64,000 bases of DNA from the IMG/VR virus record IMGVR_UViG_3300021401_000002; one strand, written 5' to 3'. Positions 20,033 to 52,218 of this stretch are shown in pieces. Source of the DNA: an uncultured virus (IMG/VR IMGVR_UViG_3300021401_000002) (taxonomy: Duplodnaviria > Heunggongvirae > Uroviricota > Caudoviricetes). The notes beneath the pieces were generated by a model, which was given only the letters and a program-made list of their open reading frames with translations, ran no database searches and had not been told where the DNA came from. Position 1 is the stretch's first letter; the number at the start of each line of letters is the position of its first letter. Both the position numbers and the translations under genes were made by a program.

Positions 20033-20078
20033 GTTCGAAGTCCTTACCCCTTCGGGTATCACGAAGCGTGTCAATCAG

Positions 20079-32052: not shown

Positions 32053-33921
32053 TCAAAACGGTGGCCAGTAAGGATAACCCAAAGCGGGATATCCGGGATA
32101 GGTGTAATGCGAATCGTATGCGGCGGGCGAATACAGATCGATGTTGCCCCACGGATCGGTGAATGGCATCTGCCATCCCGTCACCGTCTCATCGCCGTTC
32201 GTCTGTCCTACAGGTTGAGTACCGCCGCTTCCGCTGTCGCTTGCTGCTCCATCGGTCTCCGCAGATGACGCCTGTGCGGCAGGAGCTTGTGACCCGTCAC
32301 CGTCTTGGTCGGAGCCCGGAAGTTTGCCATCATCGGCTGTCGGAACATCTTGTCCCGTGTCCGCCGAAAATTGCGTATTCGCTTGTGACTCTTCAGCTTC
32401 GAGTGTGATGCCTTCTTGCTCGCCTGCAGGCGTGAGACGGTAGACAACGTGACCACTTGGAGCGGAGAGTTGCTCGACGTAGCAGCCATACGGTCCTCGA
32501 CGCCAGCACATCGCATTCCACCCGTAGAAACGCGGATCGATTTCGCGTGCCCATGACGGGTGTCCATAGCCACCACCCCAGCGCCGACCGCCGAAGCCGA
32601 ACATTCGACCGCGCTCACCGCCGAAGCCACGTTCACCGCCGAAGCCGTGTTCACCGCCGAAGCCGTGTTCACCGCCAAAGCCGCGCTCCTCAGGACGACG
32701 CGGATCAGCACGCTCGGCTTGTCGCGCAGCCTCGAACGAGCCTTGACGGTCACCTCGAATTTCGGCGTGTGCTCCTCGAGCATGAGCCGCAGCAGCTTGC
32801 GTGTGACTTTGTGCGAACCTCGCGTGCTGTGCTGCGACTCGCGAATCAGGATGCGTTGCAGCTTGCGTCGCATGATGCTGCGCAAGTGACGCATGCGTCT
32901 GTGCGGCCTGCGAATGCGAAGCTGCAGCGGTATTCTTCGCTGCAGGGTGCGATGCTGCTGCATGAGCCGATGCAGCCTGAGTTGCTGCCGATGCTGATTG
33001 CGTCACGGCAACACCAACCATGTGACGACGTTCGCGTTCTTGTTCTTGATGCTCGCGAAGCGCAGGGTCAATCATTCCTGGCTGCTGCATGCCTGGCTGA
33101 CGCGCTCCGTGATCCCCGAAGGGAGACATCTCCATTCCCGGCATTCCCATATCCGGGTGAGGATGATGAGGATGGTGAGGATGGTGAGGATGGTGAGGAT
33201 GGTGATGGTGCTGTCCGTGCCTGTGATGTTCGAAGACTGCTTGCAGCGGATCGAACCCCGTTGCGACGATGTGCTGCTGCTGACGGCGCCAATCGTCGAG
33301 CGTCTTCGGGAACGGTGTCTCGGGAGGCGGAGCCGGAATGATCGGCTGACACGAATTCGTGCGAGGATCCCAGAAATACCCAGCGGGGCACGGAAGCACA
33401 GGTACGACGGTTCCATCGCCGACATGCATGCCCGTGTGTTGAAGTTGAGTTTGCGGCGTTTGCGCGAGTGCTTGATAGTACTGCATTGCAGCGGCGAGCT
33501 CAGGCGGCACACTCGGATCAACGCCCGTATGAACAGGCGCCGCCTGCGGAGACTGAAAACGAGGTTGGAGCTGCGTCGTTGGCGTTTGCGCAAGCGCTTG
33601 GTACTGCTGCATCGCTGCTTGAAGCTCGGCTGGAACCGCGACTCCGTTGCCGGCGTATTCGTAGCCGGTACGAAGCACAGGCGAAGGCGGAGCAGAGGTC
33701 AACTGTTGAAGGTCCAAAGCATGAACCCAACCTATGAAACCTCCAGAAGCGACCTCGACGATGTAGCCGTCACCTCTTGGGGTTCCCATGATGACCGTAC
33801 CCGCGGGAATACCTCTCCCAGCAAGTGGTGTAGACCCATCGCGATCAAAGATCGCAGCGCCTTGAGGATTGACGACGCGGTACTGAAGCTCGCCTGCGTA
33901 GCCTGCAAATGAAGAGGTCAT
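32053..33921 (-). CDS. SH3b-like N-terminal domain plus His/Gln/Gly-rich repeats
   Basis: YRVVNPQGA...GFIGWVHALDL; HHP and GFGGE(H/R) repeats; internal duplicated ELxAAMQxYQALAQTP. Confidence 0.65.
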   Translation of the reverse strand: MTSSFAGYAGELQYRVVNPQGAAIFDRDGSTPLAGRGIPAGTVIMGTPRGDGYIVEVASGGFIGWVHALDLQQLTSAPPSPVLRTGYEYAGNGVAVPAELQAAMQQYQALAQTPTTQLQPRFQSPQAAPVHTGVDPSVPPELAAAMQYYQALAQTPQTQLQHTGMHVGDGTVVPVLPCPAGYFWDPRTNSCQPIIPAPPPETPFPKTLDDWRRQQQHIVATGFDPLQAVFEHHRHGQHHHHPHHPHHPHHPHHPHPDMGMPGMEMSPFGDHGARQPGMQQPGMIDPALREHQEQERERRHMVGVAVTQSASAATQAASAHAAASHPAAKNTAAASHSQAAQTHASLAQHHATQAATHPDSRVAAQHARFAQSHTQAAAAHARGAHAEIRGDRQGSFEAARQAERADPRRPEERGFGGEHGFGGEHGFGGERGFGGERGRMFGFGGRRWGGGYGHPSWAREIDPRFYGWNAMCWRRGPYGCYVEQLSAPSGHVVYRLTPAGEQEGITLEAEESQANTQFSADTGQDVPTADDGKLPGSDQDGDGSQAPAAQASSAETDGAASDSGSGGTQPVGQTNGDETVTGWQMPFTDPWGNIDLYSPAAYDSHYTYPGYPALGYPYWPPF

Positions 33922-38959: not shown

Positions 38960-39346
38960 TCACCGGAAAAGCCCTACGACCACGCTGAGCAGTCCAGCCG
39001 AGACCTTGCGAGGCGCACCGCGACGTCGCCATGCGCGCTTGATTTTGGCGATCTCACTCTCGACTTGCTCGGCGAGGTCTTCCGCCGCGCGTACCGCCGA
39101 ATCGAAGCTCCCTCGCGAAAGACGAGGACACGAGAGGCGCTCTTCCTTTTCTTCCTCGAGAGCATCGAGAGTCATGGCCAAGTCGGGACCAACGCCCATC
39201 TCGGTCGTCCAGACGAAGACGTCGTCGAAGGAGCCGCTGCCGACCTTGATGGCGGCGCCGGGGTGGAGCGCTTCGAGCGTGGAGATGAGATGCGCGCGCC
39301 ACGCAGGATCAGGGGAGGCAGTGATGATGTGAATGGTGGTGTTCAT
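38960..39346 (-). CDS. Hypothetical protein
   Basis: SD AAGGAG, strong codon bias. Confidence 0.55.
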   Translation of the reverse strand: MNTTIHIITASPDPAWRAHLISTLEALHPGAAIKVGSGSFDDVFVWTTEMGVGPDLAMTLDALEEEKEERLSCPRLSRGSFDSAVRAAEDLAEQVESEIAKIKRAWRRRGAPRKVSAGLLSVVVGLFR

Positions 39347-39358
39347 GCTCCTTTCTAG

Positions 39359-39374
39359 AGCACGCACCGTGCCA
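39359..39374 (-). promoter_or_regulatory. Possible sigma54 promoter
   Basis: TGGCAC-GGTGC-GTGCT, GG/GC at -24/-12 spacing. Confidence 0.35.
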
Positions 39375-39451
39375 CACCCCGTAACACTGTTTTGCGGGGT
39401 TTTACGCTGCGTAGCGACCTACTGTGAACGTCCAGCTACAAGCCGGTGTAG

Positions 39452-39537
39452 CGGAAGTTGGTGGAGACGAGCCACAACGTCGCGATGACGCCGCATCCCT
39501 TAGCAGGAGAGCCCCGCACCTTGCGGGTTCAACTTCC
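39452..39537 (-). tRNA. tRNA-Ser(GCT)
   Basis: Cloverleaf, long variable arm, loop CT-GCT-AA. Confidence 0.8.
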
Positions 39538-39541
39538 GTAG

Positions 39542-39624
39542 CGGAAAGCGAGAGGATCGAACTCCTAACCTTGCGGCTCCCACCAGTGTTCAAAGCTGGG
39601 TGCTCTCCATGAGCGGCGCTTTCC
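39542..39624 (-). tRNA. tRNA-Ser(TGA)
   Basis: Loop TT-TGA-AC, long variable arm. Confidence 0.85.
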
Positions 39625-39628
39625 GTAG

Positions 39629-39714
39629 CGGAAAAGAGAGGAGACGATCCCCAGCGTCGCGATGACGCCGCACTGTTTTCGAGGCAGGCCCAGCACCTTG
39701 CTGGTTTCTCTTCC
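39629..39714 (-). tRNA. tRNA-Ser(CGA)
   Basis: Loop CT-CGA-AA, long variable arm. Confidence 0.8.
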
Positions 39715-39742
39715 ATGGGGACGTTACCTGTTCGTCGATGAG

Positions 39743-39828
39743 CGGAAAACGGAGAACTCGAATCCCAGCGTGCTTGCGACGCCACACCGTATTCCAAACG
39801 GGTCTAGCTCCTAGCTAGTTCGTTTTCC
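39743..39828 (-). tRNA. tRNA-Ser(GGA)
   Basis: Loop TT-GGA-AT, long variable arm. Confidence 0.85.
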
Positions 39829-39839
39829 ATAATTCGTAG

Positions 39840-39913
39840 TCGGAGTGACAGGATTTGAACCTGTGATCTCTCGGACCCCGACCGAGCGCTCTACCAGACT
39901 GAGCCACACTCCG
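39840..39913 (-). tRNA. tRNA-Pro(GGG)
   Basis: Loop TC-GGG-GT (C33). Confidence 0.9.
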
Positions 39914-39942
39914 AGATGTCGATCCGTAGGACGACGCTTCGT

Positions 39943-40470
39943 TTACATCGTGGCAACCACGTACGGTTGCCACTCTGCGAGGATGTTCTTCATCGCAAGC
40001 ACGGGCTGTGCGAGCGGAAGAGTCTTGGGACGGAAGGGCTTGCGAATGAGCTTCATCTTCGCTTGCTCGGGGGTGCGAGCGCCCTTCTTGTCATTGCACT
40101 CGTAACATGACGTTACGATGTTGTCCCATACGGTCTTGCCGCCCTGTACACGCGGAACGACGTGGTCGTAGTTGAGGTTACCCATCGCGTGACGCTTGCC
40201 GCAGTACTGACAGACGAAGTTGTCTCGAGCCATGACGTTGACTCGCGAAAACTTCACACCCTTCTTGAACGCGCTGACGGGCTTCAAGAGTCGAGCAACG
40301 GCTGGCATCTTCATCGTGATGCCGCGCTCCGCGTTCGAGTAGACGACTTCATCGTACCAGTCGATGATCTCCACCTTGCCAGTGAAGAGCTCAGTGATGG
40401 CGTCTTGCCAAGAGCAGACTCTATGCGGAACCATGTAGTGATTGAGGATGAGAGTGGATGAGGGAGACAT
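39943..40470 (-). CDS. HNH endonuclease
   Basis: RDNFVCQYCG...DHVVPRVQGG...WDNIVTSCYECNDKKG. Confidence 0.92.
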   Translation of the reverse strand: MSPSSTLILNHYMVPHRVCSWQDAITELFTGKVEIIDWYDEVVYSNAERGITMKMPAVARLLKPVSAFKKGVKFSRVNVMARDNFVCQYCGKRHAMGNLNYDHVVPRVQGGKTVWDNIVTSCYECNDKKGARTPEQAKMKLIRKPFRPKTLPLAQPVLAMKNILAEWQPYVVATM

Positions 40471-40487
40471 GACGGTTTCTTTCGGGT

Positions 40488-40563
40488 TGGTAGGCGAACA
40501 CAGAATTGAACTGTGATTTGCTCCTTATCAGAGAGCGGTCCTAAACCATTGGACGATTCGCCC
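40488..40563 (-). tRNA. tRNA-Ile(GAT)
   Basis: Loop CT-GAT-AA, CCA encoded. Confidence 0.9.
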
Positions 40564-40597
40564 GAGTTGAATGACGAATAAGAAGATTAGCAGACTG

Positions 40598-40673
40598 TCC
40601 GCCAGACCAGATTCGAACTGGTACATGTTCGGTTATGAGCCGAAGGTTCTGAAACCTATTGAACTACCGGCGG
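40598..40673 (-). tRNA. tRNA(CAT), Met or Ile2
   Basis: Loop CT-CAT-AA. Confidence 0.85.
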
Positions 40674-40677
40674 CTAG

Positions 40678-40750
40678 TGGGAGGCACGGGGATCGAACCC
40701 ATCGAATCCGCCTTGTCGAGACGGCGCAGGCACCAGCCTACTCGCCTCCC
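40678..40750 (-). tRNA. tRNA-Val(GAC)
   Basis: Loop TC-GAC-AA (C33). Confidence 0.85.
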
Positions 40751-40754
40751 TCAG

Positions 40755-40825
40755 TAGGTCCAGACGGGTTCGAACCGCCATCCCCGGAGTGTAGAACCGG
40801 TGCCCTGCCGTTGGACGATGGACCT
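40755..40825 (-). tRNA. tRNA-Val(TAC)
   Basis: Loop TC-TAC-AC (C33). Confidence 0.85.
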
Positions 40826-40826
40826 G

Positions 40827-40902
40827 TGGTCAAGGTGAGGGGATTTGAACTCCTATATCTCCGACCCGAACGGAGCGCTCTACCAGATTGAGCTACACCT
40901 TG
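40827..40902 (-). tRNA. tRNA-Pro(CGG)
   Basis: Loop TT-CGG-GT, CCA encoded. Confidence 0.9.
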
Positions 40903-40903
40903 A

Positions 40904-40977
40904 TGGTTGGGGCATAGAGAATCGAACTCTAATAAGCAGATTCAAAATCTGCCGTCTTACCGTTAGACGATACCCCA
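40904..40977 (-). tRNA. tRNA-Gln(TTG)
   Basis: Loop TT-TTG-AA, CCA encoded. Confidence 0.9.
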
Positions 40978-40981
40978 ATAG

Positions 40982-41056
40982 TGCCAACGGAGGGATTCGG
41001 ACCCACACTGTCCTCGGTCTAAACGAGGCGACTCCTACCAATTGGTCTACGTTGGC
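40982..41056 (-). tRNA. tRNA-Leu(TAG), short variable loop
   Basis: Loop TT-TAG-AC. Confidence 0.85.
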
Positions 41057-41088
41057 GTTAGAGGGACGGACCGTGATCCGGAGCCCCG

Positions 41089-41157
41089 TCGCTGCGGACG
41101 GATTCGGACCGTCGCACTTGGTCGTATGAGAACCAGCGGCATCCCATGCTCGCAGCG
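41089..41157 (-). tRNA. tRNA(CAT) with reduced D-arm
   Basis: Acceptor, anticodon (CT-CAT-AC) and T arms pair; 69 nt. Confidence 0.6.
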
Positions 41158-41158
41158 T

Positions 41159-41235
41159 TGGTTGCGGAGCTGGTGTTGCACCCAGATTGCTAGCGTTATG
41201 AGCGCTAGTGAGGACTATGTCTACCTCTCTCCGCG
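41159..41235 (-). tRNA. tRNA(CAT), initiator-like
   Basis: C1:A72 mismatch, CCA encoded; anticodon stem GCG/CGC instead of GGG/CCC. Confidence 0.75.
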
Positions 41236-41236
41236 G

Positions 41237-41307
41237 AGCCTTCGCTGAGACTCGAACTCAGACATCGACGTTCGAAGCGTCGGGCATAGATCCACTATGA
41301 CGAAGGC
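41237..41307 (-). tRNA. tRNA-Arg(TCG)
   Basis: Loop CT-TCG-AA. Confidence 0.85.
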
Positions 41308-41316
41308 AATGAGAAT

Positions 41317-41390
41317 TGGTCTCTCCGCTGTGAGTTGAACACAGACAATGGGCTTCGTAGACCCATGCGTAGATCCGCTACGACGGAGAG
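41317..41390 (-). tRNA. tRNA-Arg(ACG)
   Basis: Loop CT-ACG-AA, CCA encoded. Confidence 0.85.
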
Positions 41391-41396
41391 AGATAT

Positions 41397-41522
41397 CGAA
41401 GTGGAAAGCTGAAATCGTGACTAGCGACTTCTGGTTCTGTCATGCACTCAGTGAGTCACCACAAAGACCAGGTTACAAGCCCGGTGTGGACTGTATGCAC
41501 GACATCACCACTTACCACTTCG
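41397..41522 (-). ncRNA. Unassigned structured RNA (rod-like)
   Basis: Terminal CGAAGTGG/CCACTTCG helix, nested helices, apical loop CTTGTAA. Confidence 0.5.
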
Positions 41523-41594
41523 CGCTCTCGGCGTGATTCGAACACGCAACCATACCGCTTAGAAGGCGGTCGCCTAATCCATTAGGACGAGAGC
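41523..41594 (-). tRNA. tRNA-Arg(TCT)
   Basis: Loop CT-TCT-AA. Confidence 0.9.
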
Positions 41595-41598
41595 ATAG

Positions 41599-41667
41599 AG
41601 AGTCTGGAGGGAATTGGACCCTCGAAACGGATTTTGCAGACCCGTCGCCGCGCCAGCGAACAGACTC
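41599..41667 (-). tRNA. tRNA-Cys(GCA)
   Basis: Loop CT-GCA-AA, U73. Confidence 0.85.
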
Positions 41668-41672
41668 ACTAG

Positions 41673-41742
41673 AGCAGGTGAGGGGAATCGAACCCCGCCT
41701 CGTGGATGGCAACCACGTGCTCGACCTTCGAGCTGCACCTGC
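41673..41742 (-). tRNA. tRNA-Gly(GCC)
   Basis: Loop TT-GCC-AT. Confidence 0.9.
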
Positions 41743-41746
41743 ATAG

Positions 41747-41817
41747 AGCGGGGACGGAGAATCGAACTCCGATATCTCGGGTGGAAACCGAGTGCATAAC
41801 CATTCTGCCATTCCCGC
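41747..41817 (-). tRNA. tRNA-Gly(TCC)
   Basis: Loop TT-TCC-AC. Confidence 0.9.
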
Positions 41818-41820
41818 GTA

Positions 41821-41924
41821 CTGGCGGCGCCGTGGACCTTTCATCCACCCTCCGCGGAGTGCTTTTCAGCTTGCTTGCCCATGCACGAACAAGTTTGCCT
41901 AGCTCCTGAGAGCGGCTGCGCCAG
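41821..41924 (-). ncRNA. Unassigned structured RNA with GAAA-capped hairpins
   Basis: CTGGCG/CGCCAG closing helix; GCT-GAAA-AGC and GTGGAT-GAAAG-GTCCAC hairpins. Confidence 0.5.
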
Positions 41925-41996
41925 AGCTGACGAGGGGAATCGGACCCCATCCCTCCATCATACCAAGATGGCGCTCCGCCTTGGAGCTACGTCAGC
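41925..41996 (-). tRNA. tRNA-Thr(GGT)
   Basis: Loop TT-GGT-AT. Confidence 0.9.
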
Positions 41997-41999
41997 AAT

Positions 42000-42146
42000 C
42001 GAGTGACTGTCGAGTATGCAATGCGTTGTAAGCGCTCTACCAACTGAGCTACGCGAAGCCGAAGCTTCGTGATCGGACTCGAACCGATGACCTCTCGCTC
42101 CAAAGGCGAATTTGCGTGTATGCGCTGCATGAGTGACAGTGACTCG
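42000..42146 (-). ncRNA. Circularly permuted tRNA-like RNA (YrlA/Y-RNA-like)
   Basis: Order is anticodon arm, AGGTC, T arm (TTCGAGT loop), acceptor stem closed by TTCG, then D arm TAGCTCAGTTGGTAGAGC; ends pair in a long stem. Confidence 0.75.
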
Positions 42147-42147
42147 G

Positions 42148-42221
42148 TGGATCCTGTCGGGATCGAACCGACAACCTCCAAGGTGCAAACCTGGCGCTCT
42201 CCCAATTGGAGCTAAGGACCC
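42148..42221 (-). tRNA. tRNA-Ala(TGC)
   Basis: G3:U70, loop TT-TGC-AC. Confidence 0.9.
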
Positions 42222-42234
42222 AAATACGTAGCAG

Positions 42235-42305
42235 TGGATCGAGCGAGAATCGAACTCGCATTTCTAGCTTGCGACGCTAGCACACGCCCGTTGTGTTATC
42301 GACCC
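42235..42305 (-). tRNA. tRNA-Ala(CGC)
   Basis: G3:U70, loop GT-CGC-AA. Confidence 0.85.
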
Positions 42306-42306
42306 A

Positions 42307-42377
42307 TGGCACGGCGAGAAAGAATCGAACTTTCTTCCAGAGGATTGGAATCTCTGTTGTGCCCTGCACTTCGCCGT
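42307..42377 (-). tRNA. tRNA-Trp(CCA)
   Basis: Loop TT-CCA-AT, CCA end. Confidence 0.85.
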
Positions 42378-42381
42378 ATAG

Positions 42382-42454
42382 CGCCCTCGGCCGGAATCGA
42401 ACCGAGCCTCACTCCGTAGACAGCGGAGCTGCCTCGCCAGATGCATACGAGGGC
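42382..42454 (-). tRNA. tRNA-Asp(GTC)
   Basis: Loop CT-GTC-TA (U37). Confidence 0.9.
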
Positions 42455-42458
42455 GTAG

Positions 42459-42531
42459 CCTCCTCGCCGTGAGTCGAACACGGTACAAACTGTTTAGGAA
42501 ACAGCTGCTCGGAATCCGCCGAGACGAGGAG
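42459..42531 (-). tRNA. tRNA-Arg(CCT)
   Basis: Loop TT-CCT-AA. Confidence 0.85.
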
Positions 42532-42542
42532 ATGTTTGACGG

Positions 42543-42617
42543 TGTGAGCGGTGAGATTCGGACTCACAAACCCGAAGGTTTGAGCTTCGGAGCTTTACCA
42601 ATTAGACTTACGCTCAC
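42543..42617 (-). tRNA. tRNA-Leu(CAA), short variable loop
   Basis: Loop CT-CAA-AC. Confidence 0.85.
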
Positions 42618-42621
42618 TCAG

Positions 42622-42696
42622 TAGGCACGGTCCGATTCGAACGGACACACTCGATGTTTTAGGCATCGAAGCTTTGCCAATTAGACTTACGTGCCC
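42622..42696 (-). tRNA. tRNA-Leu(TAA), short variable loop
   Basis: Loop CC-TAA-AA (C33). Confidence 0.85.
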
Positions 42697-42700
42697 TCAG

Positions 42701-42784
42701 TACCACCGATAGGGTTCGAACCTACACGCCCTTTCGGACATAGCGACCTCAACGCTACGCGTATACCAACTTCGCCACGGTGGC
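42701..42784 (-). tRNA. tRNA-Leu(GAG)
   Basis: Loop TT-GAG-GT, long variable arm. Confidence 0.9.
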
Positions 42785-42785
42785 A

Positions 42786-42861
42786 TGGTCTAGATGAAGG
42801 GATTTGAACTCTTATATCTCCGACCCAAACGGAGCGCTCTACCAGATTGAGCTACACCTAG
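42786..42861 (-). tRNA. tRNA-Pro(TGG)
   Basis: Loop TT-TGG-GT, CCA encoded. Confidence 0.9.
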
Positions 42862-42865
42862 TCAC

Positions 42866-42941
42866 TGGTGGTCAGTGAGGGATTCGAACCCCCTACGCCG
42901 AGTGCTTCAAACTCGCGCTCTACCAATTGAGCTAACTGACC
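42866..42941 (-). tRNA. tRNA-Phe(GAA)
   Basis: Loop TT-GAA-GC, CCA encoded. Confidence 0.9.
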
Positions 42942-42942
42942 A

Positions 42943-43018
42943 TGGCGTCCCTACAGAGATTTGAACTCTGTTTTCCTGATTGAGAAACAGGTGTCCTTGC
43001 CAAGTAGACGATAGGGAC
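42943..43018 (-). tRNA. tRNA-Glu(CTC)
   Basis: Loop TT-CTC-AA, CCA encoded. Confidence 0.9.
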
Positions 43019-43107
43019 ATAGCGCTCCATCTTATTCGCCGCCGGATAGAGCAACGGGGCCGCTTTGCGCGGTCGGAGGTTTTTAGGCCCCCACGTTTTT
43101 GAAGTAG

Positions 43108-43179
43108 CGCGCGATACGAGAATCGAACTCGTCTTGGCGGGTTGAAAAGCCACCATCCTGACCACTAGAAGAATCGCGC
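43108..43179 (-). tRNA. tRNA-Glu(TTC)
   Basis: Loop TT-TTC-AA. Confidence 0.85.
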
Positions 43180-43180
43180 A

Positions 43181-43254
43181 TGGAGCCCGCAAGCGGAATC
43201 GAACCGCTCCCACTGATTTACGAAACCAGTGCTCCGCCTTGGAGCTATACGGGC
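43181..43254 (-). tRNA. tRNA-Thr(CGT)
   Basis: Loop TT-CGT-AA, CCA encoded. Confidence 0.9.
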
Positions 43255-43258
43255 GCAG

Positions 43259-43328
43259 AGCCGACGATGGGATCTCGAACCCAAGCCTCGCTCGCTACAA
43301 GGGAGCGGTGACGCCTCGTCACGTCGGC
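43259..43328 (-). tRNA. tRNA-Thr(TGT)
   Basis: Loop CT-TGT-AG. Confidence 0.8.
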
Positions 43329-43329
43329 A

Positions 43330-43725
43330 TTACTTTTTATGAGAGCGCGCACCTCTTGCAGGTTTCGGTACACGGTCAAACTTCGACTTCCGAACTCGAA
43401 GAGATGCGACGTTGATCTCGTCGTGCACTTCCCGGTGACAATTCGCGCAAAGGAGAATCGTCTTGTCCAATTCTGGTTTGAGTCTCTCGAAAGACTTGGT
43501 ACCAAACCTAGAAATATTGAAATCCTTTTCCAACGGATCAGGATGATGAAACTCGAAAGCGGCTTGACACTTCTTGTATCCACATTTCTGGCAGCGACCG
43601 CCTTTGTAGGCCACTGCTCTGGACTTCATCTGACGTCGACGCTCTACCATCGCAATCGTCAGATATTCTCTTCGATAGGGGGTAAGACGTCTTTTGCTGG
43701 GCGGAAGCAATCTGTTGTCTAGCAC
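43330..43725 (-). CDS. HNH endonuclease
   Basis: KGGRCQKCGY...FEFHHPDP...LLCANCHREVH. Confidence 0.88.
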   Translation of the reverse strand: MLDNRLLPPSKRRLTPYRREYLTIAMVERRRQMKSRAVAYKGGRCQKCGYKKCQAAFEFHHPDPLEKDFNISRFGTKSFERLKPELDKTILLCANCHREVHDEINVASLRVRKSKFDRVPKPARGARSHKK

Positions 43726-43749
43726 AGTTATCCATTAGCACGCTCTAAG

Positions 43750-43824
43750 CTCACGGACCTGGAATCGAACCAGGGACGGCGCGGTTAACAGCCGCGGATC
43801 AGTACCAGCACTGAGACTCCGTGA
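43750..43824 (-). tRNA. tRNA-Asn(GTT)
   Basis: Loop CT-GTT-AA. Confidence 0.9.
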
Positions 43825-43952
43825 ATGTGGGAGCCGAGGGCGCTCCCGTGTTTCTTGACGAACAGGAGAGGCTACCCATGCAAGCTCGAGGGAGCCCGCA
43901 CGCGCCACGTCCTTTCAAGTTTTCAAGGGTCAAGCGCTTCCGCGAGCGCCGG

Positions 43953-44023
43953 TTCGGGCCGAGGGGGTCGAACCCTCATTCTCCGCTCCAGAGGCGGATG
44001 TCTTGCCATTAGACGAAGCCCGA
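43953..44023 (-). tRNA. tRNA-Gln(CTG)
   Basis: Loop CT-CTG-GA. Confidence 0.9.
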
Positions 44024-44030
44024 TCACTTG

Positions 44031-44103
44031 TGGGTTCGGAGGGGGATGATCCCTCAACCTTCCGGGTAAGAACCGGCTGCTCGGCCAATCGAGCTGCGAA
44101 CCC
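44031..44103 (-). tRNA. tRNA-Lys(CTT)
   Basis: Loop TT-CTT-AC. Confidence 0.88.
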
Positions 44104-44108
44104 AAATG

Positions 44109-44181
44109 TGGATTCGGTGGGCAACGATCCCACAACCTCTCGGGTAAAAGCCGATTGCTCTGCCGATTGAGCTACGAATCC
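44109..44181 (-). tRNA. tRNA-Lys(TTT)
   Basis: Loop CT-TTT-AC. Confidence 0.88.
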
Positions 44182-44251
44182 TCCTTGGTTTTTGGCCCGT
44201 CTTTCACGGGCACGTTCTTGCGTTTGAGTTTCATGACTGGGTCTTTCTTCG

Positions 44252-44334
44252 TGGGGCACGGTGGAGTCGAACCACTTGCCATAAGGCCACCGGGTTACAA
44301 CCGGCTAGAGCTTCCACTGCTCCGAACGCACCCC
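44252..44334 (-). tRNA. tRNA-Tyr(GTA)
   Basis: Loop TT-GTA-AC, long variable arm. Confidence 0.85.
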
Positions 44335-44337
44335 ATT

Positions 44338-44438
44338 GGGATATGAGCAGTCGGAGCTCCGATAGCTCTCACGTTCGGTGATAGGTTGCATTGGATACAC
44401 GTCTCCTGTGATCGGCAGTCACGCAAAGGACAAATCCC
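44338..44438 (-). ncRNA. Unassigned multibranch structured RNA
   Basis: GGGATTTG/CATATCCC closing helix with three internal hairpins. Confidence 0.4.
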
Positions 44439-44475
44439 TAGTGCGTTATCCGAGCGTTTTGAATTTTTGAGCCCT

Positions 44476-44516
44476 GAAACGACGAAAGCCGCTCTCGATT
44501 TCCCGAGGCGGCTTTC
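44476..44516 (-). terminator. Intrinsic terminator (attenuator) ahead of the tRNA array
   Basis: GAAAGCCGCCTCG / CGAGAGCGGCTTTC hairpin followed by GTCGTTTC. Confidence 0.75.
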
Positions 44517-44551
44517 CTTTGCGCTACTTGCGCGAGAAGAAAATCCGCCTC
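44504..44551 (-). promoter_or_regulatory. Antiterminator helix competing with the terminator
   Basis: GAGGCGGATTTTC (44551-44539) pairs with GAAAGCCGCCTC (44516-44505). Confidence 0.7.
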
Positions 44552-44754
44552 TAGGTACCGGCCTCCTGATTGCGCGTCGCGAACTTGGGTTCGCCGAGGG
44601 AGGCCGGATACATGGGTGTCGAGCTATCGAGTCCAACTGGGCACAAAATGACGCGCTTCGCGATACCCGAAGGGGTGCACCACGACCCTGAAAGCGCTGC
44701 TGATTGGCTCAGCGGCCTCCGGGTCAGTAAGGTGGATTTCGCTATGGAATGCAT
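44551..44754 (-). CDS. Putative attenuator leader peptide (67 aa, all 20 amino acids)
   Basis: MHSIAKSTLLTRRPLSQ...NQEAGT; TAG overlaps the first base of the antiterminator arm. Confidence 0.6.
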   Translation of the reverse strand: MHSIAKSTLLTRRPLSQSAALSGSWCTPSGIAKRVILCPVGLDSSTPMYPASLGEPKFATRNQEAGT

Positions 44755-44770
44755 CGGAATCTCTTCAGCT

Positions 44771-44799
44771 ACTACGACATGGATTTTCGAAACGCGCAA
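44771..44799 (-). promoter_or_regulatory. Sigma70-like promoter for leader/tRNA operon
   Basis: A-tract, TTGCGC-17-CGTAGT with TGn extension. Confidence 0.45.
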
Positions 44800-44819
44800 G
44801 AACTTTTTTCGCCCATCAG

Positions 44820-44893
44820 GGTGGATGACGGGGATCGAACCCGCGCATACTGCGGCCACAACGCAGCGCCTTGACCACTTGGCTACATCCACC
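44820..44893 (-). tRNA. tRNA-His(GTG)
   Basis: Loop TT-GTG-GC, G-1:C73. Confidence 0.92.
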
Positions 44894-44974
44894 ATACGGA
44901 AAGACCCCTCTTTCGAGGGTCACGTATGGAGCGGAAAAGCCTTGAAACGCATCATGACGATCTGGACGGAGATC

Positions 44975-45454
44975 CTACCGTTTTTCTGACAGCCTCGCCA
45001 CTGTCTCGAAACCAAGCAATGGAGGAAGACCGAGCGCAACGAACGCCTGCGCAAGAAAATGCTCGAACCGCGCTCGCCTGACCCTCCCAAGAAGCAGCTC
45101 GATGCGAAGACCTCTTGAAAGCTTGCGCCAATGCTGCGCGCAAAATCCGGCCGCCGTTCCACCGCGACCGATGTGCATATGGCCCTGACATCCCGAAACC
45201 CAGCAAGTCTCCGGCATGGTAATGCGACGCTTCCCGGCGCCCTTTGAACGCTTCTTGCCCTTCATCGGATTGGACGGCGGCGCCGGAGCAGGCGGCGAGC
45301 TCGGTTCTTGCGCCTTTGTCGCCTTGGGCTTGACACTCTGAGTGGCCGCTTGGGGCGACGCAGAATTCCACGGAAAAGTCTCGTACTCGGCCGGGACTGG
45401 AGAAAACGATACGACCTTGGGCTCGTATTTCGGTAAGCGTCCTGCGAGGAGCAT
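44975..45454 (-). CDS. Hypothetical protein with Cys/His motif
   Basis: CWVSGC...FCAQHW. Confidence 0.5.
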   Translation of the reverse strand: MLLAGRLPKYEPKVVSFSPVPAEYETFPWNSASPQAATQSVKPKATKAQEPSSPPAPAPPSNPMKGKKRSKGAGKRRITMPETCWVSGCQGHMHIGRGGTAAGFCAQHWRKLSRGLRIELLLGRVRRARFEHFLAQAFVALGLPPLLGFETVARLSEKR

Positions 45455-45458
45455 CGTA

Positions 45459-45785
45459 TTACGGTCCTCGCGCCGCTTTTCTTGCGATGCTGTCGAGGAG
45501 GTCTGCCTCGTTCAAAAGCTCTTGGCGCTGCTTGCCTCGAGCTTTCTTGGCCTGCTTGCGGGCATCGCCCGCGCACATGTTGGCTTCCGCTTCGAGCCTG
45601 GCGGCGAGATCAGCCAGCCATTCATCATCCGTCATCGGGCTCCCGTCGTCGTTGCGAGGACGAATCGTTCCTCGGCTGAGCGACCCTGTCGACGTGATCG
45701 CGTAGAGCATCGATCCTTGGCCTCCGTACCAGTGGGAGGCCGCCTCGATTTCGTCGGCGTCGAACTCAATAGCGTCGTCCTTCAT
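45459..45785 (-). CDS. Hypothetical protein
   Basis: SD AGGAG, MKDDAIEF. Confidence 0.55.
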   Translation of the reverse strand: MKDDAIEFDADEIEAASHWYGGQGSMLYAITSTGSLSRGTIRPRNDDGSPMTDDEWLADLAARLEAEANMCAGDARKQAKKARGKQRQELLNEADLLDSIARKAARGP

Positions 45786-45793
45786 GTCAGCTC

Positions 45794-46102
45794 CTACCGA
45801 ACAGCGTTTACAGCCGCAGCACGAATGTCGTGAATCATCCCAGCAGGGGCCCACGCGCCGCCGTCAACATGGATGTCGCCCAAAGTAACGCCGCGTACTT
45901 CGATGTAGTAGTGCTCGGGTGCAGCAGCCGATGTTCCACCAGGCACGTATTCGAGCTCGACCTCGTATCCGACCCAAGGAGTGATTATGCCGCCTTGTGT
46001 TTTTCTCGGAGCATGAACCTTGTCGAACGCTTTGATCTTGCGAAACGCATTCGCAATCTTCGTTGCGCGCGTCCGAATTTCACGAAGATTCGCCGCGCTC
46101 AT
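45794..46102 (-). CDS. Hypothetical protein
   Basis: 102 aa, ATGA overlap. Confidence 0.55.
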   Translation of the reverse strand: MSAANLREIRTRATKIANAFRKIKAFDKVHAPRKTQGGIITPWVGYEVELEYVPGGTSAAAPEHYYIEVRGVTLGDIHVDGGAWAPAGMIHDIRAAAVNAVR

Positions 46103-47516: not shown

Positions 47517-48539
47517 TCACTTGACGATGTTCTCGGGAACGAACTGCGTGCCGCCCGTGCCAATGGGAGTGATAACGCGCTCGTTCTGAGGGGCGACAAC
47601 GCGCTCGTACTGGCTCGATTTGACCTCAGGCTGCGAGATGACGCCGCTGAGACCGAGCGCGCTGTGACCTTGCGGCGTCGGAAGATGCACGACGGTGTTC
47701 ATGACTCCTGCAGGAGCTGGAGGCATGTAGGCGTCGCCCGTTGCATTGACGATCTTCTGACCGCCCACTTCTGGAGGAGGCGCCATGGATGTCGAAGAAG
47801 CCATGCTTGGTACAGCTTGAGCGGGCTCTGGCGTTCCTGGCACCTGTGGCACTTGAGTCGGTTGAGGCGCTTGAACCTGAGGCGGCGGCACAGGCTTCTT
47901 GTGCATGTAAGCGAGATGCGGCGGATACCAGGGTACGTCAGACTCGACGACGTCGGGCTGAAACACGACACGAGACTCTTGCGCAACCTGAGGTTGAGAG
48001 CCTCCATTCGGAGCTGTCACGTACGAAGGATGTACGGTCGGTGATTGCGATACCGGTTGCAAAGCACCAATCACCTGCGAAGGCGGCGCACCTTGCGTAG
48101 GAGGTAAAGGTCCTGGACCCACTTGCGGATAAGACTGTGGCTGCGGTTGCGGTTGCACTGCAGGATGGTTGTAGTGCAATGCAGGAGCTCCCGGTGCGCC
48201 TACGGGTGCTGTCGTCGGAGTAACGCCGTAACTTGGCATCGAAGTATCCGCAAACGACGGCGCGCCAAATCCGTTTCCACCGACTTCGGGCTTCGCGGCT
48301 CCGCTGGCTTCGGGTTGCACTGCGAGCTGCACATGCTGCGTAGGCTGCGAATGGTTGAAAAGACCCATGCGCCCACATTCGGCAACACACTCCGAAGCGA
48401 TCCCGTCCGCGAGCTCCTTGGCAGTCACCTCGGAGACGCCAGGTCCCGATACCTTCGCGAGCACGTTTGCCACGACGGCAGCGTACAAGTCGTCTGGCGT
48501 CGTATTCTTGTTTTGATGATTCGCATTTTGCTGAGTCAT
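47517..48539 (-). CDS. Pro/Gln-rich protein
   Basis: 340 aa, low complexity. Confidence 0.6.
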   Translation of the reverse strand: MTQQNANHQNKNTTPDDLYAAVVANVLAKVSGPGVSEVTAKELADGIASECVAECGRMGLFNHSQPTQHVQLAVQPEASGAAKPEVGGNGFGAPSFADTSMPSYGVTPTTAPVGAPGAPALHYNHPAVQPQPQPQSYPQVGPGPLPPTQGAPPSQVIGALQPVSQSPTVHPSYVTAPNGGSQPQVAQESRVVFQPDVVESDVPWYPPHLAYMHKKPVPPPQVQAPQPTQVPQVPGTPEPAQAVPSMASSTSMAPPPEVGGQKIVNATGDAYMPPAPAGVMNTVVHLPTPQGHSALGLSGVISQPEVKSSQYERVVAPQNERVITPIGTGGTQFVPENIVK

Positions 48540-48592
48540 TGGAAAACCTCTTTACCTCTTTGAAACTTCATGTTCCGAACACGATGAATGTA

Positions 48593-49900
48593 CTATACAT
48601 TGATGTAATAGTACGCAAAGAATGGGATTTCGAGATCCCCTATAGCGGCACTGTTGCCGCCAAACACGTCAATCGACGTTGCTCCTTGAACGATAGGAAT
48701 GATCGACTCGCCATCGGATGGAAACGGCCCAACAGTCGCACCGGCAACGTCGAGATTTTGCGTCCATGTGATGGGCACGGTCGATGGAGTGAGCCCCGAA
48801 TTGAAAATGCCACCAAAGAGAGCAACGCCAATCGCACCAAACGGGATTGGAATGCGCGATGCGTTCGTTGGAGCCCCTGTCGCTGCGCTCGAGAGTACCG
48901 AGCCGCGGAAAATACGAACAGGAAGCGTCGCTTCGTCAGGCGTTGGCGAGAGACCTTTGCCGCTCCAACCCGAAAACGTGACGGGATTAGCAGCTACGCC
49001 AGCTGCGACGATGGTGCCAGGGCCTCCGCCTTGAAGGGACATGATGTTCGGCGGCAAATTCGAAAACGATGCTTGCGTAAGGACTGGACCGCCAGGGAAA
49101 AGGAGGTACTGACGAAGAGGCGTACCGCCGTCGTTTGCAAAGTAGCGGGGCGCAATGCGTCCTGCCATTCGCATCATCGACGGAACAGCCGGAATCTTCA
49201 CCAGACTTCCAGGCAAGACGTCGAACGTCAATTCAGTCGAACCGCCCTTGTGGCCAAACTGAGCCAGTCCAAGTGACACGGCGCCACCAAAGAAAGCAAC
49301 TGGCGCTATTGCAGGTGCCGTGATGAGTGAGTCACCAAGAGGTACCACCAAGAGAGGCGAACCCGGTGTAGGGGGATCAACTTGAACGAGCCCGAGCATT
49401 TCTTTCGAAAGGTGATATCGCGATCGAACTGGAGACGACGGCGAATCGAAGACGGCGTTCGATGACGTTCCTTCGTCTTGATGCGGAACTTCATCGCCTT
49501 TCAAATCGAGGTACGCTTGCTGCGGCACAAGCGCGACTTCTCGCTCTGTGAGTTGAGGCTGATGTCCTGTCGCGTCCCTCATCCCATAACGGGGAGGAGT
49601 GGAGCCATCTGGAAGAGGCTGATTCTCGAGCGACATTCGCCCTTGCACGAATGCAAGATATTGAGGGTTTTGAGGGTCGCCCCAACGCATCTGAGGACCG
49701 TCAGCGTTTGGCTGATAGGGGAGTTGAACGAGCTCGCCCATCCGATTGAACATGTAACCGAGCGGAGCAGGGCGACCAAGGTAGTCGTATTGCCAGAGAA
49801 GATCGTACTCGCCGTGAAGCTGATCGCGCGGGCGGCGCGGGTCCCAGCCAGCGGCGCCGACGCCGCCTCCGATGAGGGGATTAGGGCCTCCGTTTGCCAT
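48593..49900 (-). CDS. Structural protein candidate, beta-rich C-terminal half
   Basis: 435 aa; Pro-rich N-terminus, alternating hydrophobic beta pattern. Confidence 0.55.
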   Translation of the reverse strand: MANGGPNPLIGGGVGAAGWDPRRPRDQLHGEYDLLWQYDYLGRPAPLGYMFNRMGELVQLPYQPNADGPQMRWGDPQNPQYLAFVQGRMSLENQPLPDGSTPPRYGMRDATGHQPQLTEREVALVPQQAYLDLKGDEVPHQDEGTSSNAVFDSPSSPVRSRYHLSKEMLGLVQVDPPTPGSPLLVVPLGDSLITAPAIAPVAFFGGAVSLGLAQFGHKGGSTELTFDVLPGSLVKIPAVPSMMRMAGRIAPRYFANDGGTPLRQYLLFPGGPVLTQASFSNLPPNIMSLQGGGPGTIVAAGVAANPVTFSGWSGKGLSPTPDEATLPVRIFRGSVLSSAATGAPTNASRIPIPFGAIGVALFGGIFNSGLTPSTVPITWTQNLDVAGATVGPFPSDGESIIPIVQGATSIDVFGGNSAAIGDLEIPFFAYYYINV

Positions 49901-50146: not shown

Positions 50147-50356
50147 ATGCCCAGACCTCGCAGCGATAACACTCAGTCGATGACGATCAAGATGCCTCGA
50201 AAGTGGGTCGAGGACGCAAGTGGCTGTGCCAAGCGGGCTACGGAGCATGGATTTGCAACGGTTACACGCACCGACATCTTTCGATCTGCGCTGCGAAAAG
50301 GTCTCGACGCAATCATCGAAGAGCAGCGCCAAAAAGAGAAGAGGCGAGAAAAATGA
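50147..50356 (+). CDS. Ribbon-helix-helix regulator coupled to cas12
   Basis: SMTIKM strand; VTRTDIFRSALRKGLD; TGA overlaps the cas12 ATG. Confidence 0.8.
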   Translation: MPRPRSDNTQSMTIKMPRKWVEDASGCAKRATEHGFATVTRTDIFRSALRKGLDAIIEEQRQKEKRREK

Positions 50357-52218
50357 CGATGATTCGAGTCTACAAGTACGGTCTTCTTCGACCCATTCAG
50401 AACGAAGCGCTCGTACGGGCGCAGCTTCGTGCCAAACACGACTATCGCAACACGCTCATCGAAATCGAAAGAGGTCGACGTACGGCGATGAGAAACGTCG
50501 AGGAGCAACATTCTGAGCTTGCTACGGCGATGGCAGCTTCACGTGCAGCGCTCGTGGAGCTGGAAGAGTCACGCCAAGCCATTCGCCTTGCTCGCAGCAA
50601 GTCTCGCAGCCGATCCGAAACAAACGTGATGAAAGAACGCGTCAAACAGGCCCGAATCGTGAGACGTACGACATCGCAAGCACTCTATGATTGCCGAGCG
50701 CGTGTTCGTCCAGAAATGATTTCTGCACGCGATGTCATCAACGAACGCGCAGCCGAGCTCGTTCGTGGAGCCCGAGCGCTCACGACGTCGTATTGGGGCT
50801 CGTATCTACTTGCCGAAGACGAGGTCAAGGCCGCTGCGAAGCAGCCGCTTTACGACGATTCTACGCCGAATGATCCTCGCTTTGAACGCTGGACTGGCGA
50901 AGGTCAAATCGGAATGCAAATTCAAAATGGCATGACGCCTGGCGAGGTGCTCAGCTCTGAAGATACACGACTTCGCATCAGCGAACCGAATTGGAACGAC
51001 GGCAAGCACGTGCGAACTCTTCGCACTCTTTCGCTACGTGTCGGATCAGAAGGACGCAAGCCAGTTTGGGCATCTTGGCCTCTCATCATGCATCGACCTC
51101 TTCCGCCCGCGGCGCGTATCAAAAGATGCAACGTTTCTTTGCGCCGCCACAGCTCGCGTGAGATATGGTCCGCCGAGCTTACGATTGAATGCCCGAACGT
51201 AACGAGCGCAATTCGCGAAGAGCACGGGTGGGGACGCGGCGGCGGAGTCGAAGGAGCCGTGGGAGTCGACATCGGCTGGCGTGTTGTCACGGATGACGAC
51301 GCAGGTCTCCGTGTGTGCGCCTACGCATCAGAAGACGGTCAGGACATTGGTGAGCTTCGTCTTAGTCCTCATGAGATTACGCGTTTACGCAAGGCAGATG
51401 AAATCAGGAGCATTCGAGACAAGAGGTTTGATGCGATTCGTCTCATTGTGCGAGACAAGCTTGCGACGCTCGAAGTTCCAGCGTGGCTTTCCATGTCGAC
51501 GCTGCATATGCATGTGTGGCGTTCACCGGCTAGGCTTGTCTCGCTCTCGAAGCGTTGGAGCAAGGAGCGCTTCGCAAACGATGAAGAGGTCTTCGATTTG
51601 CTCGAGTCTTGGAGGTACTGGGACAGCCAGCACTACCAATGGGAATGCGATCAGCGCACCAAGGCGCTGCGACGGCGACGCGAAAAGTACCGAGTGTTCG
51701 GGGCTCGGCTCGCGGAAAAATACGAGGTGCTGGTACTCGAAGATCGAGCAGAAGATGACCGAACCAAACCCATGGATCTCCGAAAGTTCGCCCGCCGAGC
51801 TCAAACGGAGATGGAACCAGAGAACGAGACGGCAAGGTCAAACAGACACCTCGCAGCAACAAGCGAGCTACGCCAAGCCCTCGAAGAGGCTTTTATCTCC
51901 CACGGCGGACGTGTCGAGCTTGCGCCATGTGAAGATACAACGCGAACGTGCACAGCGTGTGGCGTCGTCGATCGTGGATTGGATGCGGAAACTGAAATCG
52001 ATGTAACGTGCTCGTCGTGTGGTGCCAAGCAAGACCAGGACGTGCGTGCGAGCAACAACCTTTGCGAGCGGTGGCGTAAAGCGCAAAATGCCGGAGGCGC
52101 TCGCAATGCCAAAGCGGCGAAATCAGAGGGGAGATGGAAAAAAGCAAGACGTCTTCGGACCGAAAAGCAGCAGCGAATGGGAACCTTTCGCAATGCCAGC
52201 GATAACAGCGCAGAATGA
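50353..52218 (+). CDS. cas12m: Compact type V CRISPR effector, Cas12m (V-M/V-U1) family, 621 aa
   Basis: YWGSY, GQIGMQIQ, MHRPLP, VGVDIGWR, WRSPARL, LVLED, CTACG...CSSCG, DQD co-linear with Cas12m as I recall it; adjacent array. Confidence 0.85.
   Translation: MTMIRVYKYGLLRPIQNEALVRAQLRAKHDYRNTLIEIERGRRTAMRNVEEQHSELATAMAASRAALVELEESRQAIRLARSKSRSRSETNVMKERVKQARIVRRTTSQALYDCRARVRPEMISARDVINERAAELVRGARALTTSYWGSYLLAEDEVKAAAKQPLYDDSTPNDPRFERWTGEGQIGMQIQNGMTPGEVLSSEDTRLRISEPNWNDGKHVRTLRTLSLRVGSEGRKPVWASWPLIMHRPLPPAARIKRCNVSLRRHSSREIWSAELTIECPNVTSAIREEHGWGRGGGVEGAVGVDIGWRVVTDDDAGLRVCAYASEDGQDIGELRLSPHEITRLRKADEIRSIRDKRFDAIRLIVRDKLATLEVPAWLSMSTLHMHVWRSPARLVSLSKRWSKERFANDEEVFDLLESWRYWDSQHYQWECDQRTKALRRRREKYRVFGARLAEKYEVLVLEDRAEDDRTKPMDLRKFARRAQTEMEPENETARSNRHLAATSELRQALEEAFISHGGRVELAPCEDTTRTCTACGVVDRGLDAETEIDVTCSSCGAKQDQDVRASNNLCERWRKAQNAGGARNAKAAKSEGRWKKARRLRTEKQQRMGTFRNASDNSAE

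Follow-up and report, generated by a model that had tools for sequence, protein, structure and literature searches.

The DNA analysed here is a stretch of 64,000 nucleotides (nt) from an uncultured soil phage (IMG/VR record IMGVR_UViG_3300021401_000002; Caudoviricetes), called the window throughout. It carries a large array of transfer RNA (tRNA) genes, and a 486-nt gap between tRNA-His and tRNA-Tyr in this array holds the element in question: promoter-like blocks, a leader open reading frame (ORF) and, overlapping and following its stop codon, three RNA segments (arms A, B and C) that are predicted to pair in two mutually exclusive ways (Table 1). A previous reading made from the letters alone, below called the sequence-only reading, had seen here a leader-peptide attenuator gating the tRNA array. 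What it had observed was confirmed, and its interpretation was partly supported.

At its default threshold ARAGORN called 31 tRNAs in the window, on the minus strand; in relaxed mode (-ps90) it called 41, all on that strand and together serving all 20 amino acids. The statement that 40 of 41 tRNAs lie downstream of the element is therefore true of the relaxed setting and not of the default one. These 40 lie on the same strand as the element, begin with tRNA-Tyr, which is followed by 39 more, and serve every amino acid except His, for which the sole tRNA is located upstream. The window also encodes a protein-primed family B DNA polymerase, tail-fibre-like, endolysin-like and TnpB-like proteins and a transfer-messenger RNA (tmRNA), and near-identical DNA is present across many soil metagenome runs.

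Table 1. Features of the leader gap and the surrounding tRNA array, in the direction of the minus strand (window coordinates)
Feature	Position	Strand	Description	Basis
tRNA-His (GTG)	44819..44892	-	only array tRNA upstream of the element	ARAGORN; Rfam tRNA 63.1 bits
Promoter-like blocks	44771..44799	-	TTGCGC (44799-44794), 17-nt spacer, CGTAGT (44776-44771), TGT before	sequence; conservation in L004; function putative
Leader ORF	44551..44754	-	67 codons + TAG; peptide MHSIAK...EPKFATRNQEAGT	translation; conservation in relatives
Nested hairpin	44558..44607	-	in the last 19 ORF codons; outer 9-bp stem CCGGCCTCC/GGAGGCCGG, inner stem GCGAAC/GTTCGC	inverted repeat I14; minimum-free-energy (MFE) folds
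Arm A	44539..44551	-	5' arm of the putative antiterminator; its first base is the G of TAG	inverted repeat I1; duplex energies
Small GCGC/GCGC hairpin	44521..44533	-	inside the putative antiterminator	prefix folds; conserved in L004
Arm B	44505..44516	-	shared strand, partner of A (antiterminator) or C (terminator)	repeats; folds; covariation
Arm C	44484..44496	-	3' arm of the terminator-like hairpin 44516-44484 (I13)	13 pairs kept in L004
Interrupted U-rich tail	44468..44483	-	GTCGTTTCAGGGCT, after the hairpin	conserved in L004
Hairpin-to-tRNA-Tyr spacer	44335..44467	-	conserved blocks, including AGGAG (44407-44403)	window/L004 alignment
40 downstream tRNA genes	39451..44334	-	Tyr first; two HNH endonuclease genes interspersed	ARAGORN default and relaxed; Pfam HNH
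HNH endonuclease genes	39943-40470, 43330-43725	-	between array tRNA genes	Pfam HNH matches

The most informative comparison was offered by locus L004, a 1350-nt metagenome contig with tRNA-His, a 433-nt gap, tRNA-Tyr and tRNA-Lys, which is a true relative with 82% identity to the window over the part aligned by blastn. It was located, independently of the ORF, through a degenerate DNA pattern that had been designed from a diverged variant seen in an RNA-library contig. The metagenome scan with this pattern returned six loci; besides L004, the useful one, these were L002, which is the same phage (99.97%), and the chance coding matches L003 and L005-L007.

The pairing of a stop-overlapping arm with the 5' arm of the hairpin at 44516-44484, as claimed by the sequence-only reading, is present (I1, I13) and covaries in L004. 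The A/B pairing lies within the 20-nt inverted repeat I1, which is 80% complementary, and in both phages arm A opens with the G of TAG. Between window and L004 the 33-nt hairpin differs at nine positions, eight of which make up four double compensatory pairs (G-C to A-U, A-U to G-C twice, C-G to U-A) while the ninth is a loop base. All 13 pairs of the terminator stem are standard in both phages with no one-sided change, and controls with slid partners gave zero or one such pair. Arm B has four changed bases out of 12 in L004, each of them matched in A as well as in C. Read pair by pair, the changes between A and B comprise three compensatory ones, two one-sided but compatible ones and none that is disruptive, and a bulge is gone in L004. 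The cognate A:B duplexes reach −17.5 (window) and −20.9 kcal/mol (L004) versus −11.9 and −12.3 kcal/mol for chimeras of the two, and the cognate B:C duplexes −16.2 and −20.0 versus −7.2 and −13.2 kcal/mol, an advantage of 3-9 kcal/mol for the cognate pairs. In neither gap does B have a strong partner other than A and C. Judged by covariation, the two mutually exclusive helices are both conserved, and since the two are incompatible, their joint maintenance would be the signature of a regulatory choice.

Calculated folds describe how such a choice might be made. The terminator hairpin has an energy of −19.6 kcal/mol in the window and −26.7 kcal/mol in L004, the antiterminator together with its inner hairpin −26.7 and −30.0 kcal/mol, and the two states are, in these models, close in energy. 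In folds of prefixes ending before arm C is complete, A:B formed in every case and in both phages. Masking positions −15 to +13 around the stop, as a ribosome would, produced the terminator fold in both sequences.

The leader ORF was confirmed by translation as it had been claimed, with 67 codons, a TAG stop, all 20 amino-acid kinds and 45 distinct codons. Its counterpart in L004 has 54 codons with identical ATGCA start, frame and TAG, the net indel being 39 nt, and the other two forward frames of L004 hold one to three stops. Further members of the family came from protein databases. A word-index search with the leader peptide gave five candidates, all five of them relatives, and a HMMER profile search of 1.84 billion representatives gave 12 matches at E ≤ 0.001, of which 11 were relatives, four of them already in the word-index set; the twelfth was an unrelated repeat protein and was rejected. 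In total, 12 relatives' peptides of 44-67 amino acids (aa) were collected, that of L004 included. Scans of IMG/VR with neighbouring proteins, exact window stretches and the peptide alignment found no relative, nor did a search of GTDB genomes with the peptide alignment. The sole IMG/VR match to the 3' end of tRNA-His (L001) comes from a low-GC phage that is unrelated, lacks a tRNA gene and carries a partial tRNA end, and the sole GTDB match to a back-translated C-terminal pattern (L008) is an unrelated coding match without tRNAs; both were discarded.

Two observations on the divergence of these loci may be recorded here. It is mosaic: over tRNA-Gln and tRNA-Lys(CTT) (43960-44114) the window and a DNA contig of run X11 differ at about 35 positions, over the next 440 nt (44115-44552) at only 2. 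Between window and L004, tRNA-His is strongly diverged and tRNA-Tyr almost identical, and the L004 DNA 5' of tRNA-His does not align to the window.

The peptides begin with MH in 11 of the 12 relatives and share in all 12 a C-terminus ending in QE-(A/T)-(G/D)-(T/P). Counted from the MH start they are 53-67 residues long, with numerous indels, all in frame. Among the 13 peptides of the family the final 8-13 residues before the stop are almost invariant and the middle is variable, and 12 of the 13 retain a Trp about 30 residues before the stop. From these alignments, the ORF and the position of its stop appear conserved beyond chance. As a check, the sequence-only reading had suggested looking in related arrays for a conserved stop-to-antiterminator spacing and covariation with an unconserved peptide: in L004 the position is kept and the helices covary, whereas the peptide retains motifs.

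It had also predicted that the leader samples every amino acid, and here the family bore it out. All 20 amino acids occur in 12 of the 13 peptides, many of them as single copies, the exception being the truncated P0012, which is without His. By way of background, 0.7-2.7% of 54-67-residue windows from this phage's proteins or open frames are complete in this sense. Shuffling residues inside each column of the alignment (20,000 shuffles) gave a mean of 7.4 complete sequences and P(≥ 12) = 0.0004, and a total of one missing amino-acid kind was observed versus 6.9 expected (P = 5e-5). Because such completeness is largely inherited via conserved positions, compensation within individual sequences was examined as well: of 15 lost "anchor" residues, 14 turned up at another place in the peptide concerned, versus 145 of 245 otherwise (Fisher P = 0.0055). 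Trp, single-copy in every other member, is lost from SWC in P0006/L004 and present there at TWRP; Asn, likewise single-copy in every other member, is lost from RNQ in P0013 and present at PNF. The K/N swap could alternatively be covariation at the RNA level, and all of these statistics may be inflated by misalignment of the variable middle (6 of the 15 events concern Val) and by shared ancestry. With this limit, the maintenance of all amino acids in the leader beyond chance is statistically supported on the aligned sequences.

The same is not true of codons. A pan-codon content had been claimed, and the number of distinct codons is not beyond chance: 45 in the window (P = 0.03) and 37 of 54 in L004 (P = 0.31). 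Codons rare in the phage are enriched in the ORF (14/67 in the window and 7/54 in L004, versus 6.7% in genes), but their reported concentration at the start is not conserved, the first 15 codons including 8 rare ones in the window and 3 in L004. A run of codons for one amino acid is absent from all family peptides.

Upstream of the ORF, the claimed TTGCGC-17-CGTAGT blocks are present, and L004 has TTGCGT-17-CCTAGT with equal spacing and a variable spacer sequence. They also appear conserved in P0004, P0005 and P0008, where they were read from N-terminal extensions of the peptides (KKFL..V, IHV.V). A second pair of blocks, TTCTTTGCG ... ATGTATAGTA, lies at 48590-48618 (minus strand); it has a better −10 block (TATAGT) and stands about 50 nt before a gene at 47517-48539 with a good Shine-Dalgarno (SD) sequence. 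The repeated pair may represent a promoter type of this phage. Conservation of the blocks and a similar pair elsewhere make a promoter at the leader likely, and if that site were used the 5' untranslated region of the leader would be about 10 nt long. At the other end of the element, TTCGTCGTTTCAGGGCT, which includes the last three stem bases, is identical in L004 across 17 nt.

We propose, with a probability of about one half, that the gap holds a ribosome-mediated transcription attenuator without codon runs, which controls read-through into the other 40 tRNA genes. A short transcript, probably starting at the promoter-like blocks or arriving from tRNA-His, would carry the leader ORF of 54-67 codons. 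The stop of this ORF would overlap arm A, and A and C would compete for B, with A:B as antiterminator and B:C as a GC-rich hairpin followed by the U-rich tail. On prompt completion of the ORF the leading ribosome, standing on the stop, would hide A, so that B:C would pair and transcription would stop. A ribosome delayed anywhere in the ORF would instead allow A:B to pair once B has been made, and the polymerase would enter the tRNA array; since A:B forms before C is complete, the polymerase would pass with the antiterminator already formed. The nested hairpin at the 3' end of the ORF, whose outer 9-bp stem (44607-44599 with 44566-44558) is 100% complementary as had been reported, is well placed for, and may act as, an RNA polymerase pause hairpin that couples polymerase to ribosome. 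With no run of a single codon and with every amino acid in it, the leader would report general translation or tRNA supply and not the supply of one amino acid. We infer that the ORF is translated and that transcription terminates at the hairpin, as well as the polarity and the physiological trigger of the switch. A more specific version, in which the ORF has been selected to hold all 20 amino acids so that a shortage of any charged tRNA, through starvation or a host anticodon nuclease, would open the replacement set of 40 tRNAs and restored translation speed would shut the array again, is possible but in our view doubtful.

Several results weigh against the proposed attenuator. Regarding the ORF, the peptide motifs SGSWCIS, YPAS and EPKFA-RNQEAGT exceed the conservation expected for a pure codon sampler. 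Its codon usage is unusual for this phage, with a log-odds of −0.13 versus 0.25 ± 0.17 for windows of 12 long phage genes; only 1.2% of the real-gene windows score below it, and its GC content at first codon positions (0.50) is lower than that of all 12 genes. No convincing SD sequence was found at the ORF, the anti-SD duplexes of −2.9 (window) and −3.0 kcal/mol (L004) standing against a random mean of −3.4; many real genes of the phage have anti-SD duplexes no better than this. The possible inflation of the amino-acid statistics mentioned above belongs here too, as does the fact that the covariation of the helices is based on two distinct DNA variants only, window and L004. Protein databases, moreover, would under-represent relatives with a broken ORF; P0012, which is N-terminally shortened to 44 aa, was recovered, so that shortened forms are not invisible to the search.

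The signals for initiation and termination raise similar doubts. A sigma-70 scan of 39000-46000 called no promoter. The tail after the stem reads GTCGTTTC, so that the U tract is interrupted, and a simple terminator scan did not call the hairpin, the tail having too few U; relatives known from the antisense frame, decoded by hand, imply a more U-rich tail. Contigs from RNA libraries (metatranscriptomes) of two studies bridge the hairpin and extend about 80 nt beyond it. The sequences of the four runs compared with the window are contigs, which give no information on 3' ends, strand or level, parts of the window without cover carry no weight, and carry-over of DNA into RNA libraries is possible. 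As contigs cross the hairpin, there must be read-through in some RNA at least, unless the crossing sequence is contaminating DNA. One RNA-library contig (44611-44881) reaches from tRNA-His into the gap; together with the bridging contigs it makes read-through and co-transcription with tRNA-His plausible. In two studies RNA-library contigs have their ends at 44406 and 44398, which gives no more than a weak hint.

Finally, the folding supports the proposed order of events in part. The sequence-only reading had suggested co-transcriptional folding as a check, and the prefix folds agreed with it in forming A:B before C is complete, whereas the complete leader at equilibrium, without a ribosome, adopted the terminator with a probability of 0.94-1.0. 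With a ribosome stalled 30 nt before the stop the fold was still the terminator, and a stall at codon 10 switched the fold in the window but not in L004. No conserved anti-antiterminator was found in the folds of window and L004: the best upstream partner of A is formed in the window by codons 4-9 (−13.5 kcal/mol) and in L004 by codons 2-4 (−10.1 kcal/mol), and the partners in MFE folds differ as well. The repeat I2 (44527-44546 with 44781-44800) was considered for this role and dropped, since L004 does not retain it and the transcript probably starts downstream of it. As equilibrium folds of the complete leader favour the terminator even with no ribosome present and no conserved anti-antiterminator is found, the default state and the polarity of the proposed switch would rest on kinetics.

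An RNA-only switch, where a ligand, a protein or a tRNA binds the upstream RNA and sets the choice of helix, with the ORF open as a by-product of GC-rich structure, is an alternative that we rate as unlikely. The gap does fold far better than expected: the 486-nt gap exceeded 100 of 100 shuffles (z = −3.14), and the 433-nt gap of L004 gave z = −3.72. Where the peptide is most conserved, its codons fall on the nested hairpin, which differs between window and L004 by a single loop base; in a third variant, from an RNA contig, the stems are kept and the loop is changed (K to S in the peptide). The weak SD and the atypical codon usage fit an untranslated frame. The window, P0004, P0005 and P0008 have, in addition, the same frame open for about 47 codons 5' of the ORF, through tRNA-His and the promoter-like site, which implies that open frames are cheap here. 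What speaks against an RNA-only switch is the ORF itself, with the same start in 11 of 12 relatives, the same end in all 12 and indels that are all in frame, as well as the maintenance of all 20 amino acids, for which it offers no reason at the RNA level. Neither was an RNA family recognised in either gap: Rfam at E ≤ 1 gave only tRNA-related models in the window gap, with no T-box or other family, and at E ≤ 10 only noise matches in the L004 gap, again with no T-box.

We hold it to be distinctly unlikely that the ORF is merely one more small protein gene of the phage, ended by a terminator of its own and making a peptide with a separate function, the alternative helix being incidental or tuning its own messenger RNA. 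The peptides do form a conserved family with motifs, two HNH genes are inserted in the same array, and small ORFs and HNH genes are common between phage tRNA genes. An incidental helix would, however, not be expected to let A track B through three compensatory changes, nor would an ordinary gene be expected to be under selection for all 20 amino acids. The leader peptide had no family match in Pfam or PHROG, its composition is low in complexity and rich in S, T, P and R, and its codon usage is atypical.

The strand opposite the leader is open as well, at 44386-44691 (plus strand, 101 aa) in the window and at 761-1006 (minus strand, 81 aa) in L004, and it was called as a gene in the relatives P0016-P0018. 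Since ends and frames of this antisense ORF vary and one version crosses tRNA-Tyr in antisense, we take it as spurious; databases would then contain wrong-strand translations of the leader RNA element.

The near-invariant last 8-13 residues in 13 peptides, the Trp about 30 residues upstream in 12 of 13 and the overlap of the stop with A would also suit an arrest peptide, whose C-terminus makes the ribosome dwell at the stop on some signal, as in TnaC, and so hides arm A. We consider this very unlikely: the invariant codons double as the 3' half of the nested hairpin, so that a constraint on the RNA explains the C-terminus equally well. We know of no arrest motif, such as a terminal Pro, in the leader peptide. 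Least probable of all is a structured spacer or an RNA-processing or stability element of a polycistronic tRNA precursor, involving no termination decision, which would suit the RNA-library contigs that link tRNA-His to the gap and cross the hairpin, the interrupted U tract and the conserved blocks that extend past the hairpin up to tRNA-Tyr, but which leaves the conservation of the ORF unexplained and is at odds with two covarying, exclusive helices that imply a choice of states.

Some further features of the gap and its surroundings deserve mention. An element of about 28 nt with two hairpins (a CCC-TTCG-GGG stem-loop, then one like CGCG-AAG-CGCG) occurs three times in the window, at 44649-44676 (minus strand), 20046-20073 (plus strand) and 33098-33123 (minus strand); run X11 has it in another contig too, where its flanks differ. 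The leader copy sits in an in-frame insertion that is specific to the window relative to L004 and P0003, and in one copy the second stem has changed in a compensatory way (CGCG/CGCG versus CACG/CGTG). In the spacer before tRNA-Tyr, the conserved block GATCACAGGAGACGTGT-TCCAATG (region 44305-44410, minus strand) holds an AGGAG with an anti-SD duplex of −7.4 kcal/mol. The small ORF behind it (31 aa from GTG, 28 aa from ATG) enters tRNA-Tyr; its L004 counterpart has 32 aa and a similar N-terminus and runs in a different frame over the tRNA.

The array gaps that hold the HNH genes measure 574 and 494 nt, similar in size to the leader gap. A degraded HNH gene was considered as an origin of the latter and dropped, the best tblastn match of both HNH proteins having E = 0.35. 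In the gap between tRNA-Thr and tRNA-Ala (42012-42118, minus strand) there is a weak match to YrlA (RF02553, Y RNA-like), with 32.7 bits versus a gathering score of 69 and E = 3.5e-4. Elsewhere in the window, the protein with the Cas12f1-like TNB (TnpB-type) domain has 671 aa (50203-52218, plus strand), the tmRNA at 58649-59002 (plus strand) has the tag ANDNAIANAA, and the gene for the protein-primed DNA polymerase (61407-63998, plus strand) extends beyond the window end.

The sequence-only reading had assigned the element trp/his-type attenuator geometry. Leaders of the trp, his, leu, thr and pheA type have 14-32 codons with runs of cognate codons, sense one amino acid and possess a 1:2 anti-antiterminator. 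The phage element resembles them in its leader ORF, in the hairpin in the 3' part of this ORF, in the exclusive antiterminator and terminator and in a ribosome at the stop that would block the antiterminator strand. The layout of stop, antiterminator arm and terminator-like hairpin is supported by the comparison with relatives. It differs from them in that its leader has no codon runs and contains every amino acid, and in that no conserved anti-antiterminator was found. Lacking a run of cognate codons, the element fails the defining feature of this class. T-boxes, too, tie a decision between terminator and antiterminator to tRNA supply. They need no ORF, control synthetase or amino-acid genes, and, as stated above, found no Rfam match in either gap.

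To our knowledge, the regulation of phage tRNA genes is almost unexplored. Searches of full-text literature, which leaves subscription journals largely outside, turned up no paper on an attenuator that precedes tRNA genes or phage tRNA arrays. Phage tRNAs counter tRNA-cleaving immunity, as described for PARIS (PMC11464382) and for retron effectors (PMC11555353); the portions of these two papers used here describe the tRNAs themselves and no sensor that switches on an array. These defences give a motivation for studying the element, and not evidence for its function. If our proposal is true, it bears on the rescue by phage tRNAs from such defences, since tRNA sets could be induced on demand, and it would constitute a phage feedback loop that senses the state of the host translation apparatus. 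The element is small and self-contained.

The closest known system in logic appears to be the bmrB-bmrCD attenuator of Bacillus subtilis. As far as the parts of its description used here go (PMC4191407), it has a 53-aa leader without a run of regulatory codons, slowed translation favours the antiterminator and the ribosome serves as a general sensor of translation speed; rare leader codons affect the outcome, and the system responds to antibiotics that target the ribosome and has an ABC transporter as its output. Both systems share a long leader ORF (53 aa in bmrB, 54-67 in the phage), the absence of a codon run and alternative terminator and antiterminator structures. In bmrB, according to the same portions of that work, an anti-antiterminator is predicted and the ORF itself contains the terminator, whereas the putative phage terminator follows the stop, which overlaps the antiterminator arm. 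The output of the phage element would be a tRNA array, and its leader keeps all 20 amino acids. No sequence relationship links the phage element to bmrB; the likeness is architectural. New here are the tRNA-array output, the stop placed directly on the antiterminator arm and a leader maintained with all 20 amino acids. If true, this would be the first leader-peptide attenuator of tRNA genes and, compared with leaders that sense one amino acid, the first to sample all of them.

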